Source of the DNA: Tagaea sp.
GTDB lineage: Bacteria; Pseudomonadota; Alphaproteobacteria; CACIAM-22H2
Length of the DNA stretch: 64,000 bases
NCBI GenBank assembly: GCA_965228135.1
Contig: OZ245798.1
Coordinates: 2,891,037 to 2,955,036 of the forward strand
Direction of reading: 5' to 3'
The notes beneath the pieces were generated by a model. It searched no databases and was not told where the DNA came from. It saw only the letters and a list, made by a program, of their open reading frames with translations. The position numbers and the translations under genes were made by a program. Positions 49,428 to 54,354 of the stretch are shown here, piece by piece. Within the stretch, counting starts at the first letter, position 1. Each line of letters begins with the position of its first letter.

Positions 49428-49471
49428 CGCGGCCAGCTACGCCTGCGGTTGTTTTTCTCGTAATTTCATAG

Positions 49472-49500
49472 TTGACGTTACGTTCTTTTTGGACTAGTTT
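49472..49500 (+). promoter_or_regulatory. Putative sigma70-type promoter (TTGACG -17 nt- TAGTTT) in a local AT-rich patch upstream of the duplicated array
   Basis: -35/-10 hexamers with 17-bp spacer read directly, ~130 nt upstream of the first plausible start (49632). Confidence 0.3.
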
Positions 49501-49631
49501 TGTACTCATGTGGTCTGCCCAGCCTATGCGGGGGCATTCCGCGACTTGGTTTCATCCTGCTGGGTCTCTCATGTCGTCTTAAACCTTGTGCCGGCGCATC
49601 CGCGTTGGCCGCAATCGCGGAGTCGCGCCCG

Positions 49632-51455
49632 ATGTCTGCCCTGCCCCGTATGCCGTTCGACATGTCCGACGACGATTACGGCGTCCCGTTTCAAATGCCG
49701 GGACGCTCGAACGGGTTCTTCGACCTCGATGCCGATGTGGGGCTCGGCTATCCCACGCGCCGCGCCGACAACATCAAGGTCCAGACGATCCTCGGAAACG
49801 CCGGGGATCTCGACCTCGCCAAGACCGATGGGCCCACCGGCTGGGGGCTCTACACGTTGGACGACGCGATCCGGTCGTACCAGAAGCGCAACGATTTGAA
49901 GGTCGATGGCTGGCTGCGCCCGGGCGGGCCGACGATTTCCAAGATGCGCGACCAGTTCGGCGCGAGCCTGGGAAAATACCCGGCCCCGAGCCCGCGCGAA
50001 GTCGACGAACATCACGACCGTTTGGCCCAAGGCGAACCCGGTCTGCTGAACGGCACCTACGGCGAATTGAAACTCGCGCCGATCTCCGGCCTGCCCGCAC
50101 CCGATGAAGATATGGTCGGGTCGAACCGCTCGATGGCCGAATATCTCCAGCGTCATCGCAGCGGTCTGGCCGACGCGCCGGATACGCTCGCCTCTTACAT
50201 CCGCACGATGGGTGTGCCCGGCATCGTCCAGGCGCGCGACTTCGTCGGGCAATGGGACCAAACGAAACCCGGCCAAGGCGGCGACGCGATCCGCGCGATC
50301 CTGACCGCCCTGGGCGACGCGCCCGAGCTGCAACGGCAATTCTTCGGCGGCCCGATCGCCAATGACCGCCCGATCGGGATTCGGATCGACGATCTGGTGT
50401 ACCGGCCCGGCGAAGACGAAAGCGTCGCGGTCCCGCTGCCATATCGGCCGGGCGAAATTGGGGCCCCGATTCGTCTGCCTTACACGCCGCCGCTATCGCG
50501 CGACGGGCTGCTCGATCCCGAATACATCAAGGCGTTCGGCGAACGCCTCGCGGCCAAGCGCGCGTTCGAGGAACAGGAGCGCGCCAACACGGTCTATGAC
50601 GACGGCTTGCTCGACGCGAACAACTGGCCGCCGCATTTGCGCGCCCGCTTGCTCGGCGATGCGCAAGCCAGCGACGACGCGAATCAGAACTTCAGCGGGA
50701 ACGACCGGCTCCAGCCCGCCGATGCGCCGGAGGCGACGGAGGAGGAATTCACCGGCCAAGACGAAGACGCCGACGCGATCCAAATCGCCGAAGCCAAAGG
50801 CCGTCCGTCGCAGCCCGCGCAACGACCGCCGGCGTCGACAGCACCGAAGCCGCCAGCGCCAAAACCGACAGCACCGCAAGCGCGTCCACCAGCGACGCCG
50901 GTGCTATCGTCGAAGTTCCGCGAGGCGATTTCCGCTGCCGAAGCTGGCGATAATCCGGTCCCGCCTTGGGATGCCAGGAACCCAGGTTCGACGGCAATCG
51001 GTCGATATCAGATTCTCAAGGATGCTTTTGTCGATGCGGGCTTGAAGGACGCAAGCGGAAATTGGCGTGCGGGCAATGCGCTGGGCGTAAAGACCGATGC
51101 CGAATTTCTTGCCAGCCAGGACGCGCAGAACAAAGCGTTCGACATGATAATGGCGCGAAACGACAAGCAACTTAAAAGTAATGGCGCTTATAACCATATC
51201 GGCAAAGACGTCGATGGCCTCAAGGACAAGTTCAAAATAACCGAATCCGGTCTTTTGGCGGCGGCACATCGGCAAGGCGCCGGGGCCGTCCGCGACTATC
51301 TGGTGCGGATGCGCGAGAATGAATGGAATTCTCAAAAGGGACTGGATGAAATCCAAAATTCGGACAGAAACCCGCAGCAAATTAAGTCGATGATGGATGC
51401 GCACAAAGCCATCGAACAGCGCTTGAGGGAATTCACCAATGTCCCGCACCGATGA
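49632..51455 (+). CDS. Large protein copy 1: peptidoglycan-binding domain + Pro-rich linker + divergent lytic transglycosylase (SLT)-like C-terminal domain; no signal peptide
   Basis: PG_binding_1-like repeat (VQTILGNAGDLDLAKTDGPTGWGLYTLDDAIRSYQKRNDLKVDGWLRPGGPT). C-terminal E-A-G..NP....N.GS.AIGRYQI...NGAYNHIG pattern matches the SLT E-S/GLMQ/AYNxG motif spacing. The track start at 49500 is a TTG inside the predicted -10, so I prefer the ATG at 49632 with GGAG RBS. Confidence 0.6.
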   Translation: MSALPRMPFDMSDDDYGVPFQMPGRSNGFFDLDADVGLGYPTRRADNIKVQTILGNAGDLDLAKTDGPTGWGLYTLDDAIRSYQKRNDLKVDGWLRPGGPTISKMRDQFGASLGKYPAPSPREVDEHHDRLAQGEPGLLNGTYGELKLAPISGLPAPDEDMVGSNRSMAEYLQRHRSGLADAPDTLASYIRTMGVPGIVQARDFVGQWDQTKPGQGGDAIRAILTALGDAPELQRQFFGGPIANDRPIGIRIDDLVYRPGEDESVAVPLPYRPGEIGAPIRLPYTPPLSRDGLLDPEYIKAFGERLAAKRAFEEQERANTVYDDGLLDANNWPPHLRARLLGDAQASDDANQNFSGNDRLQPADAPEATEEEFTGQDEDADAIQIAEAKGRPSQPAQRPPASTAPKPPAPKPTAPQARPPATPVLSSKFREAISAAEAGDNPVPPWDARNPGSTAIGRYQILKDAFVDAGLKDASGNWRAGNALGVKTDAEFLASQDAQNKAFDMIMARNDKQLKSNGAYNHIGKDVDGLKDKFKITESGLLAAAHRQGAGAVRDYLVRMRENEWNSQKGLDEIQNSDRNPQQIKSMMDAHKAIEQRLREFTNVPHR

Positions 51456-52086
51456 GCCCTCCATCCGTTCGATCATCGCTGGGGTCGCCTTGCTGGCCGC
51501 CGTTGCCGCACTCAGCGAATCGATGGCGATACCGATCGTCGCGAACGCCGAATGGTCGAGGCACGGCTTCGAAGTAGTTCCTTTGTACGATCTCACCCAG
51601 GCGCGCGACCCGGAACTCATCGCGCTCGCCGAACGCGTTATCGCAAGCGATCCAGATTTAGCCGCGCATTACGAAAATCCGAAAATCGACGAGCTGTTCG
51701 GATTCGATGCCAGCCAGGTCTATGTCGGCCGCGTGCGGATCGAACCGAAAGGGCAGCCTTGGGTCGCCATCGTCATCAGTGCGAGCAATTATTGCGGCAC
51801 GGCCGGATGTTCGACGTCGTACCTGTTCGCCAAGCACAACGGCGAATGGCGGCCCCAAACGTGGTTTTTTCGATCCGATCCGCCGCCTGCACCGATGGCA
51901 ATATTGTTGACGACGTCGCCGACGGTCGGTTGGATACCTGGAAGAAGTGGCGCGCGCGCGGGACGGGCGCAGTTATTTCCGGTCTTGATCAACGGTCGTC
52001 GCGTCATCCGGGGCGAGGATGGCGGGCAGTTCTGGGATGGCAAAGAATGGCAAGATTTTTGCCGTCGTTGCAATGAACTGGGCTGA
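51439..52086 (+). CDS. Small Cys-containing exported companion protein copy 1 (candidate inhibitor/immunity protein)
   Basis: 215 aa with N-terminal charged region plus hydrophobic core (signal-peptide/anchor-like) and 5 Cys. Start overlaps the large-gene stop by 17 nt (translational coupling). Confidence 0.6.
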   Translation: MSRTDEPSIRSIIAGVALLAAVAALSESMAIPIVANAEWSRHGFEVVPLYDLTQARDPELIALAERVIASDPDLAAHYENPKIDELFGFDASQVYVGRVRIEPKGQPWVAIVISASNYCGTAGCSTSYLFAKHNGEWRPQTWFFRSDPPPAPMAILLTTSPTVGWIPGRSGARAGRAQLFPVLINGRRVIRGEDGGQFWDGKEWQDFCRRCNELG

Positions 52087-53723
52087 TGTTCGGCCAAGGC
52101 GGCAACGCGATCCGCAGCTATCAGAAGCGCAACGATCTGAAAATCGATGGCTGGCTGCGCCCCGGCGGGCCGACGATCACGAAGATGCGCGACCAGTTTG
52201 GCGCGAGCCTGGGAAAATACCCGGCCCCGAGCCCGCGCGAGGTCGACGAACATCATGACCGTTTGGCGCAAGGCGAACCCGGTCTGCTGAACGGCACTTA
52301 CGGCGCGATCAAACTCGCGCCGATCCCCGGCCTGCCAGCCCCGGACGAGGATATGGTCGGCTCGAACCGATCGATGGCCGAATATCTCCAGCGCCATCGC
52401 AGCGGCCTGGCCGACGCGCCCGAGATGCTCGCGGCTTATGTCCGCAATCAGGGCCTACCCGGCATCGTCCAGGCGCGCGACTTCGTGAACCAGTGGGACC
52501 AAACCAAGCCCGGCCAAGGCGGCGACGCGATCCGCGCGATCCTATCGGCCCTGGGCGACACGCCCGATCTGCAACGCCAATTCTTCGGCGGCCCGATCGC
52601 CAACGACCGACCGATCGGGATTCGCATCGGCGATATGCGCGGCGAAATCAGCGATATGCTGCACCGGCCCGGCGATGATAAAGGCGCCGCAACACCGCTG
52701 CCGCACCGGCCCGGCGAGGAAGGCCCGATGGTCCGCCAGCCTTACGCCTCGTTGCCGCCGCTATCGCGCGACGGGCTGCTCGATCCCGACTACGTCAAAG
52801 CATTCGGCGAGCGCTTGGACGCCAAGCGCGAATTCGAGGAACAGCAGCGCGCCAACGCCGTCTACGACGACGGCTTGCTCGACGCCAACAACTGGCCGCC
52901 GCATTTGCGCGCCCGCTTGCTCGGCGATGCGCAAGCCAGCGACGACGCGAATCAGAACTTCAGCGGGAACGACCAGTTCCAGCCCGCGAATGCGCCGGAA
53001 ACGACGGACGAGGATTTCACCGGCCAAGACGAAGACGCCGACGCGATCCAAATCGCCGAAGCCAAAGGCCGGAAGCAGCAACCCGCGCAACGGCCGCCGG
53101 TATCAGCAGCACCGAAGCCGCCAGCGCCGAGACCGACAGCACCGCAGGCGCGTCCGCCTTCGACGCCGGCGCTATCGTCGAATTTCCGCGACGCAATCGC
53201 CACCGCCGAAGCAGGCAACATTCCTGTCCCGCCCTGGGGTACGGTGAACTCAGGCTCGAAGGCAATGGGTCGATATCAGATTCTGCCGAAGACTTTCGTC
53301 GATGCGGGTTTGAAGGACGCAAGCGGAAATTGGCGTGCGGGCAATGCGTTGGGCGTCAAGACCGATGCCGAGTTTCTTGCCAGCCAGAATGCGCAAAACA
53401 AGGCGTTCGACATGATAATGGCGCGAAACGACAAGCAACTTAAAAGTAATGGCGCTTATAACCATGTCGGCAAAGACGTCGATGGACTTGAGGCCAAGTT
53501 CAAAATAACCGAATCGGGCCTTTTGGCGGCGGCACATCGGCAAGGCGCTAGGGCCGTCCGCGACTATCTGGTGCGGATGCGCGAGAATGAATGGAATTCT
53601 CAAAAGGGGCTGGATGAAATCCAAAATTCGGACAGAAGCCCGAAGGAAATTGAGTCGATGGAGAAGGCACACAAAGCCATCGAACAGCGCTTGAGGGAAT
53701 TCGCCAATGTCCCGCACCGATGA
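52086..53723 (+). CDS. Large protein copy 2 (N-terminally shorter paralog): partial PG-binding domain + linker + SLT-like C-terminal domain
   Basis: ~85-90% identical to copy 1 from AIRSYQKRNDLK onward, with an 8-aa indel. Start ATG overlaps the preceding stop (TGATG). Confidence 0.55.
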   Translation: MFGQGGNAIRSYQKRNDLKIDGWLRPGGPTITKMRDQFGASLGKYPAPSPREVDEHHDRLAQGEPGLLNGTYGAIKLAPIPGLPAPDEDMVGSNRSMAEYLQRHRSGLADAPEMLAAYVRNQGLPGIVQARDFVNQWDQTKPGQGGDAIRAILSALGDTPDLQRQFFGGPIANDRPIGIRIGDMRGEISDMLHRPGDDKGAATPLPHRPGEEGPMVRQPYASLPPLSRDGLLDPDYVKAFGERLDAKREFEEQQRANAVYDDGLLDANNWPPHLRARLLGDAQASDDANQNFSGNDQFQPANAPETTDEDFTGQDEDADAIQIAEAKGRKQQPAQRPPVSAAPKPPAPRPTAPQARPPSTPALSSNFRDAIATAEAGNIPVPPWGTVNSGSKAMGRYQILPKTFVDAGLKDASGNWRAGNALGVKTDAEFLASQNAQNKAFDMIMARNDKQLKSNGAYNHVGKDVDGLEAKFKITESGLLAAAHRQGARAVRDYLVRMRENEWNSQKGLDEIQNSDRSPKEIESMEKAHKAIEQRLREFANVPHR

Positions 53724-54354
53724 GCCCTCCATCCGTTCGATCATCGCCGGGGTCGCCTTGCTGGCCGCCGTCGCGGCACTCAGCGAATCGATGGCGATAC
53801 CGATCGTCGCAAACGCCCAATGGTCGAGGGATCGCGTCGAAGTGGTTCCTTTGTACGATCTTACCCAGACGCGCGACCCGGAACTCATCGCGCTCGCCGA
53901 ACGCGTTATCGCAAGCGATCCAGATTTAGCCGCGCATTACGAAAATCCGAAAATCGACGAGCTGTTCGGATTCGATGCCAGCCAGGTCTATGTCGGCCGC
54001 GTGCGGATCGAACCGAAGGGACAGCCCTGGGTCGCCTTCGCCGTTGGCGCGGGTGCGTATTGCGGCACGGCCGGGTGTTCGGCGTCGGCGCTGTTCGCCA
54101 AGCGCAACGGCGAATGGCATGCTCAAACGCCGTTCTATGCATACGATCCACCGCCTGCGCGGATGGCAATATTGTTGACGAAATCGCCGATGGTCGGTCG
54201 GATACCGGAAAGATATCGCGCACGCGCGGGACGGGCGCAGTTATTTCCGGTCTTGATCAACGGCCGTCGCGTCATCTGGGATGATGATGGCGGGCTGTTC
54301 TGGGATGGCAAAAAATGGGAAGGTTTTTGTCGTCTTTGCAATGAACTGGGCTGA
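53707..54354 (+). CDS. Small Cys-containing exported companion protein copy 2
   Basis: ~88% identical to copy 1. Substitutions clustered in a central patch (VAIVISASNY/VAFAVGAGAY, STSYLFAKHNGEWRPQTWFFRS/SASALFAKRNGEWHAQTPFYAY). Confidence 0.6.
   Translation: MSRTDEPSIRSIIAGVALLAAVAALSESMAIPIVANAQWSRDRVEVVPLYDLTQTRDPELIALAERVIASDPDLAAHYENPKIDELFGFDASQVYVGRVRIEPKGQPWVAFAVGAGAYCGTAGCSASALFAKRNGEWHAQTPFYAYDPPPARMAILLTKSPMVGRIPERYRARAGRAQLFPVLINGRRVIWDDDGGLFWDGKKWEGFCRLCNELG

Follow-up and report, generated by a model that had tools for sequence, protein, structure and literature searches.

A putative polymorphic toxin-immunity cassette with an adjoining orphan-like module in Tagaea

Four co-directional genes, examined here as a candidate toxin-immunity locus, occupy positions 49632 to 54354 on the forward strand of a 64,000-nucleotide (nt) stretch of Tagaea sp. 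contig OZ245798.1, referred to below as the window. In the open reading frame (ORF) table they run in the order large1-small1-large2-small2, namely, large1 (49632 to 51455; 607 amino acids [aa] from its ATG; P0001, the full-length putative toxin), small1 (51439 to 52086; 215 aa; P0033, a predicted periplasmic immunity protein), large2 (52086 to 53723; 545 aa; P0005), and small2 (53707 to 54354; 215 aa; P0034, the second predicted immunity allele). Repeat finding and pairwise alignment resolved them into two head-to-tail units of ~2.25 kb, each with one large and one small gene (unit 1, ~49865 to 52086; unit 2, ~52105 to 54354), and the nucleotide identity of the units by region is 0.86 to 0.90; for 2.2-kb repeats, a chance origin is impossible at this level. 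Each unit has a 17-nt overlap between its large and its small gene, and the stop codon of small1 and the start codon of large2 have a single base in common, TGATG (CTGGGCTGATG). A sequence-only reading of the locus had described two ~2.25-kb units with 85 to 90% identity, the 17-nt overlaps, and the TGATG coupling, all of which were recovered, but its statement that both copies were kept intact was not, as large2 is a 5'-truncated copy. It starts at the equivalent of large1 residue 78 and lacks the first 77 codons, including those for the first half of the peptidoglycan-binding domain, and the repeat begins inside this domain (PG_binding_1) of large1. An 18-nt filler at the junction of the units (52087 to 52104) could be aligned neither to the sequence 5' of unit 1 nor to that 3' of unit 2.

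Scans of the four proteins against Pfam, PHROG, NCBIfam, and PADLOC returned only a subthreshold match to PG_binding_1 and a spurious low-complexity match to DnaX; at the family level it is therefore fair to say, as had been proposed, that this is not a described system. Searches of PDB sequences with the large protein, a profile of its C terminus, and a profile of the small protein gave only chance-level matches (MTHFR and PETase). In large1, a domain with the PG_binding_1 fold (aa ~44 to 113; 49761 to 49970) is followed by a helical subdomain (aa ~121 to 238; 49992 to 50345) that was confidently modeled and is conserved across all family members, with an invariant ARDFV..Q motif. No specific structural match to the helical subdomain was found in PDB or BFVD, nor any significant match to the N-terminal domain as a whole in BFVD, and we propose that the subdomain is a trafficking or adaptor module. 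The C-terminal putative toxin domain (aa 426 to 607; 50907 to 51452) matches no Pfam or NCBIfam model, including the Pfam SLT model (PF01464/GH23). Structure prediction from homologue alignments assigned it a lysozyme-like fold, that of family 1 lytic transglycosylases (LT), with a conserved putative catalytic Glu, which bears out the initial description of the large genes as cell-wall-enzyme-like. This predicted catalytic residue, Glu437 of large1 (AAEAG; codon at 50940 to 50942), is retained as Glu375 in large2 (53208 to 53210) and is invariant, together with a G-x-Y-Q motif, in eight homologues with identities down to 40%; in large1 the motif reads G-R-Y-Q and lies 20 residues downstream of the Glu.

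The two domains of large1 are joined by a variable linker of ~170 residues which, as read from the sequence, is rich in Pro, Asp, Glu, and Ala (aa ~250 to 425; 50379 to 50906). It carries PAPKP repeats and two DGLLD motifs, and the encoding DNA contains 15-nt repeats; the linker is 82% identical between the copies, with indels. The two motifs (SRDGLLDPEY and YDDGLLDANNWPP; window positions 50500 to 50700, aa ~290 to 350) are also found in the large2 equivalent and in P0023 and might be short binding epitopes. Neither large protein has a signal peptide (15-aa hydropathy peaks at 0.26 within the first 60 residues of large1), and the 607 and 545 residues of large1 and large2 include no Cys, which is unusual for cytoplasmic proteins of such size. 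A separate arrangement was seen in P0200, a 308-aa protein from a JGI metagenome, in which the LT-like domain is N-terminal and RTX (HemolysinCabind) repeats are C-terminal. This fusion suggests that a related enzyme is secreted by a type I system in another organism and that the domain can travel by other routes.

Both small proteins begin with a Sec signal peptide (aa 1 to 37 in small1) with a hydrophobic core at residues 12 to 26 and a cleavage motif in which VANA precedes the cut and E or Q follows it. Cys119, Cys124, Cys208, and Cys211 are present in both, within the motifs YCGTAGC and FCRxC, and the genes can thus be regarded, as before, as small, exported, and Cys containing.

To place large1 among its relatives, it was used as a query, and both full-length relatives and many proteins matching only its first 260 to 400 residues were retrieved. 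The N-terminal ~260 residues (N-domain) were found to be common to proteins with at least 30 unrelated C termini. When 1.84 billion cluster representatives were searched with an N-domain profile, 87 clusters were identified at an E value of ≤1e-30, and the tails of the 96 proteins with a near-complete N-domain fell into 30 clusters. Tail types comprised LT-like, Tae2-like, glucosaminidase, Peptidase_M23, DUF6973, and PBECR1 and PBECR3 nuclease domains, with ~20 unassigned. The Tae2-like tail is a BPSL0067-family domain (NCBIfam, E values of 1e-13 to 1e-16) and also matched PDB entry 6WIN, "Type 6 secretion amidase effector 2" (E value, 9e-4). One paralogue in the genome of the window, P0007, ends in a glucosaminidase-like domain and is 100% identical to large1 over residues 78 to 260, indicating recent recombination between paralogues; neither P0001 nor P0007 was found in the contig index by exact-sequence look-up. 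Among species-representative genomes the N-domain was found at 24 loci, nearly all in the genus Tagaea and a few in other Rhodospirillales, with up to four loci per genome. The N-terminal module, the LT-like toxin domain, and the small-protein family are all absent from the curated libraries searched.

The gene that follows the large gene differs with the tail. The small protein has few close homologues, and members of its family were identified downstream of LT-type tails in the window and in loci L001, L007, L010, L012, and L041. In L010, L012, and L041, the LT-type C termini that have this partner are 40 to 51% identical to that of the window. In L012 the small-protein family follows a 51%-identical tail (hmmsearch, 5e-21; BLAST, 1e-11), in L010 it follows a 45%-identical tail (BLAST, 1e-4 to 5e-5, with L010 itself included in the profile), and the match in L041 (BLAST, 5e-5) has the (W/Y)CGTAGC motif in common. 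Homologues of the small gene thus accompany LT-type tails in four diverged lineages. L041 (8001 to 12268) encodes a short PG_binding_1 and LT-like protein of 323 aa followed by four tandem paralogous genes of 234 to 249 aa, each with CGTAGC. Tae2-type tails are followed by an unrelated exported protein of 141 to 155 aa, present as a single copy in L005, L023, and L026. In L025 (4243 to 7400), three tandem exported paralogues of 145 to 155 aa, 49 to 64% identical, follow the Tae2-type large gene and form a probable immunity-gene array. The glucosaminidase tail in L009 is followed by another unrelated exported protein. The partner gene therefore tracks the type of C terminus, independent of the N terminus and of the genomic site, and such co-variation is a signature of toxin-immunity pairs.

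The cassette, consisting of the leader, a large gene, and a small gene, lies between different housekeeping genes in different genomes, and its modules have been displaced. At the GGT/ABC-transporter site, L007 holds an LT-type large gene and small gene, and at the same site L005 and L006 hold a Tae2-type large gene with its 141-aa gene, then a ~70-nt remnant of the LT 3' end, then a small gene left as an orphan. In L005, the LT C terminus has been displaced by a Tae2 C terminus with its 141-aa partner. An N-domain fragment in L023 (12033 to 12602), downstream of an intact Tae2-type cassette, begins inside the peptidoglycan-binding domain, near the point at which large2 is cut, and the conserved stretch coding for DGWLRPGGPT may be a recombination hot spot. 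An 83-aa chimeric ORF in L041 ends in the last residues of an LT toxin tail. The guanine-plus-cytosine (GC) content is 0.54 in the toxin domain and 0.58 to 0.60 in the small gene, compared with 0.65 to 0.69 in the flanks. This low GC content and the occurrence of the cassette with its leader at different housekeeping sites point to a foreign origin.

In Tagaea sp. CACIAM 22H2, the flanking genes are 91 to 94% identical at the nucleotide level and gene order is kept, with a single unit at the site. The small2 protein shares 93.5% identity with its L005 and L007 counterpart and 83.7% with small1, and synonymous divergence (dS) between the units is 0.19 to 0.38, compared with 0.21 to 0.37 for the flanking genes between this genome and that of Tagaea CACIAM. 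The relationship of the small2 alleles and a dS equal to that between species suggest that two alleles were joined by recombination rather than by a recent local duplication. A simple recent tandem duplication was rejected on the same two counts, and the earlier interpretation of the array as an old duplication is doubtful, as small2 is closer to the L005/L007 protein than to its neighbor. The ratio of nonsynonymous to synonymous divergence (dN/dS) between the units is 0.23 to 0.49, compared with 0.08 to 0.12 in neighboring genes, indicating that all four frames have been under purifying but relaxed or diversifying selection. It was considered whether large2 is a decayed pseudogene; this was rejected, as its frame is intact, Glu375 is kept, and its dN/dS relative to large1 is 0.23 to 0.36, although this signal may predate the truncation.

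The left edge of cassette homology is at ~49440, immediately after the stop codon of an M48 peptidase gene (49427). The leader between this edge and large1 (49440 to 49631; ~190 nt) is a conserved leader or promoter region of the cassette and is homologous to those of the L005 and L007 cassettes, which occupy another chromosomal site. It includes TTGACG at 49473 to 49478. A promoter had been predicted at 49472 to 49500; a sigma-70 consensus scan called none in the leader, and promoter and terminator counts were not above those of shuffled controls, but the stretch is conserved in cassettes at other sites. The sequence GTTGACGTTACGTTC at 49471 to 49485 overlaps the -35-like TTGACG, resembles the alphaproteobacterial LexA box GTTC-N7-GTTC with one mismatch, and is identical in L005 and L007 but not in L001 and L002. 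Across the window, 40 LexA sites with one mismatch were found, with 50 expected by chance from shuffled controls. A search of the locus against Rfam identified no family, the narK match being at the level of chance (E value, 0.87). The ORF table also lists an upstream TTG start for large1 (49500 to 51455), which was rejected because the additional stretch is not conserved in L001 and L002; large1 was therefore taken as 49632 to 51455.

The neighbors of the examined cassettes are housekeeping genes. Using precomputed Pfam matches and ORF scans, no type VI secretion system (T6SS), phage, or conjugation genes were found within 8 to 10 kb at ~20 distinct loci; the neighbor scan covered 122 ORFs from 16 further loci, with results taken among the top 25 families listed. 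In the window, 46 ORFs were scanned at an E value of ≤1e-25, and the top 25 families listed did not include any from T6SS, phages, or conjugation systems. The earlier remark that no such genes are nearby consequently holds at the level of strong hits in the window and at ~20 related loci. Pfam families for the MIX, FIX, PAAR, and Rhs marker domains were not found in the cassette proteins, and the output of an NCBIfam alignment-mode scan of the window genes was dominated by ABC-ATPase models. One large-gene homologue (L035:1-8294; IMGVR_UViG_3300012921_000060) has its start ~300 nt short of the terminus of a Mu-like prophage contig, behind genes for the baseplate, tail fiber, and DNA methyltransferase and for an exported protein of 174 aa; it may be cargo of the prophage or no more than flanking host DNA. 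On the minus strand of L001 (14582 to 15316), in a region syntenic with ~58.3 to 59.0 kb of the window, a gene with a metallo-beta-lactamase fold has a precomputed match to PF23023 (Anti-Pycsar Apyc1) and is probably a host homologue. One ORF of the window matches HipA_C (PF07804; E value, 4e-49) and may encode a toxin-antitoxin kinase of the HipA type, separate from the cassette.

Given the observed architecture, the predicted fold, the co-variation of C terminus and small gene, the displacement of modules, and purifying selection on the four ORFs, the locus is probably a polymorphic toxin-immunity cassette for interbacterial antagonism with a second, orphan-like module. This agrees with the original suggestion of a polymorphic effector-immunity or enzyme-inhibitor array, which is supported by the shared N-domain, the tail-specific partners, and the displaced and orphan modules. 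The variable C termini, the co-varying downstream gene, and the displaced modules or scars by which polymorphic toxins are recognized (Zhang et al. 2012) were all found here. Three points weigh against this interpretation. The links to the small proteins of L010 and L041 are weak (E values of 1e-4 to 1e-5); among the families listed, neither a secretion system nor a vgrG, hcp, PAAR, or adaptor gene was found within 10 kb of the cassettes at the ~20 loci or in the 64-kb window; and the whole case for a toxin is comparative, as we infer toxicity, neutralization, and a delivery route from the sequences of relatives.

As a toxin, large1 would comprise a PG_binding_1 and helical N-terminal region for trafficking or targeting, then a disordered linker, then a lysozyme-like domain that would cleave peptidoglycan glycan strands in the target-cell periplasm, with Glu437 as the predicted catalytic acid. 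As it has no signal peptide, large1 is expected to stay in the cytoplasm of the producer, away from its substrate. The small1 protein would be exported via Sec and, in the periplasm, would bind and block toxin arriving from sister cells. Unit 2 would be a different allele of the same toxin and immunity type. Without its N-terminal 77 residues, large2 is an orphan-like module that is probably not deliverable, and small2 may still protect against its own allele as carried by related strains. Recombination between the 86 to 90% identical large genes could switch the toxin that is expressed; toxin switching by recombination is known for Rhs and contact-dependent inhibition (CDI) orphans.

If large1 is a toxin, the tentatively favored route is the T6SS, with large1 as a cargo effector whose gene lies apart from the T6SS genes, because of the Tae2 domain, the effector/immunity topology, and published PG_binding_1 fusions in vgrG loci. 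Tae2 is a T6SS effector family. The topology, judged by hydropathy and sequence inspection, pairs a large protein that lacks a Sec signal with a predicted periplasmic small protein. PG_binding_1 belongs to a set of six domains reported in vgrG loci as fusions to toxin N termini, and the fusion has been proposed to aid T6SS effector discrimination (Commun Biol 2023, PMC10673891). A less likely but possible account is that the conserved N-module is an export or import device of an undescribed route, defining an interbacterial toxin class specific to Rhodospirillales. Such a route, whether independent of secretion systems or dependent on a new one, would explain why ~20 loci are unlinked to secretion, phage, or conjugation genes.

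The main rival, itself unlikely, is that the large protein is a diffusible bacteriocin of the colicin, pyocin, or pesticin type, released with no dedicated secretion system, for example, by lysis of a subpopulation. It would bind an outer membrane receptor of related cells, be imported via its linker or N-domain, and degrade peptidoglycan, with the small protein shielding producers. Stand-alone two-gene cassettes in housekeeping surroundings at ~20 loci with no linked secretion genes speak for such a toxin, as do the three-part layout of N-domain, long disordered linker, and killing domain, the absence of Cys, and tails that include both periplasm-acting and nuclease domains, as in S-pyocins and colicins. 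The two DGLLD..W motifs of the linker, possibly akin to Tol/Ton-box epitopes, also count in its favor. However, the cassette contains no lysis gene and no third gene at all, the single one-mismatch LexA site at 49471 is not significant against the background of the window, and there is no recognizable receptor-binding or TonB-box region. The conserved N-domain is, from its modeled fold, a binder of peptidoglycan rather than of the outer membrane, and the Tae2-type domains, which are known only from T6SS effectors and their eukaryotic descendants, also argue against a bacteriocin.

It is very improbable that the large protein is a housekeeping or conditional autolysin held in check by a periplasmic inhibitor and used for wall remodeling, vesicles, or self-lysis. 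Although PG_binding_1 and an LT-like domain also make up ordinary wall enzymes and endolysins, and exported relatives of the C-terminal domain exist in Flavobacterium, the large protein has no export signal and the N-domain also carries nuclease domains unconnected with cell walls. Copy number and position moreover differ among close relatives, displaced modules leave orphan partners, and the low GC content and raised dN/dS set the cassette apart from neighboring genes. Least probable of all is a prophage remnant in the form of a lysis module or virion-associated lysin from a phage or tailocin. Three observations would fit: a domain order like that of phiKZ gp144-type endolysins, the homologue that follows tail-fiber and methyltransferase genes where a Mu-like prophage contig ends, and the PBECR domains typical of phage and plasmid polyvalent proteins. 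Against it, none of the four proteins matches a PHROG family, a search of 2.9 million viral contigs gave one match (located where its contig ends), genes for holins, spanins, structural proteins, or integrases were not found next to any cassette, and the N-domain has no structural match in BFVD.

If the locus is a toxin-immunity cassette, its N-module is of particular interest, as the N-terminal domain of a polymorphic toxin normally names the family and indicates the mode of delivery. In this case no curated library contains the module, at least 30 toxin tails are joined to it, and at none of the cassettes examined was it linked to a secretion system; solving its route would add either an unlinked class of T6SS cargo in alphaproteobacteria or a new mode of delivery. 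The locus further offers a predicted new LT-like toxin domain and a predicted new family of periplasmic inhibitors of such enzymes, and new toxic activities may be found among the ~20 tails that have no assigned function. It is also a natural example of array building, in which two alleles have come to be adjacent and one is cut at a conserved peptidoglycan-binding motif.

Among known systems, peptidoglycan hydrolase pairs of the T6SS (Tge/Tgi such as Tse3-Tsi3, and Tae2-Tai2) differ in that no vgrG, hcp, PAAR, adaptor, MIX, or FIX marker was found at any cassette locus, and the large protein of 607 aa has its own conserved 260-aa N-terminal module. The PG_binding_1 fusions described previously (PMC10673891) are from gammaproteobacteria and vgrG loci only, whereas those found here are from Rhodospirillales, lie outside vgrG loci, and have an extra helical domain. 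Compared with family 1 lytic transglycosylases and phage lysins (MltC, MltE, Slt70, phi6 P5, and phiKZ gp144), to which identity is 14 to 17%, the domain found here has no Pfam SLT match, lacks an export signal, is not in a phage, and has a dedicated partner. The cassette is like pesticin-Pim, colicin M, and S-type pyocins in being a stand-alone toxin-immunity bicistron with a modular toxin. In the case of pesticin, the toxin is a muramidase acting on peptidoglycan, and Pim is the periplasmic immunity protein that blocks it. These bacteriocins differ in that neither a receptor-binding domain nor a TonB box, lysis gene, or SOS box was recognized in the cassette, and the sequences are unrelated.

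In organization the cassette resembles the CdiA-CT/CdiI and Rhs-CT/RhsI systems (Zhang et al. 2012, PMC3482391), which also have a conserved N terminus, variable C termini, and downstream genes for cognate partners, as well as displaced modules, truncated downstream copies homologous to the main gene, and immunity-gene arrays. The N-module of the Tagaea proteins, however, is not of the type V secretion system, Rhs, PAAR, LXG, or MuF kind and is not in Pfam. In contrast to CDI and Rhs orphans, the orphan here is nearly full length, being only 77 codons short, and its start is coupled to the upstream stop codon. From these comparisons, the locus appears to be of a known kind, a polymorphic toxin-immunity system, represented by a new family in Tagaea-like bacteria.

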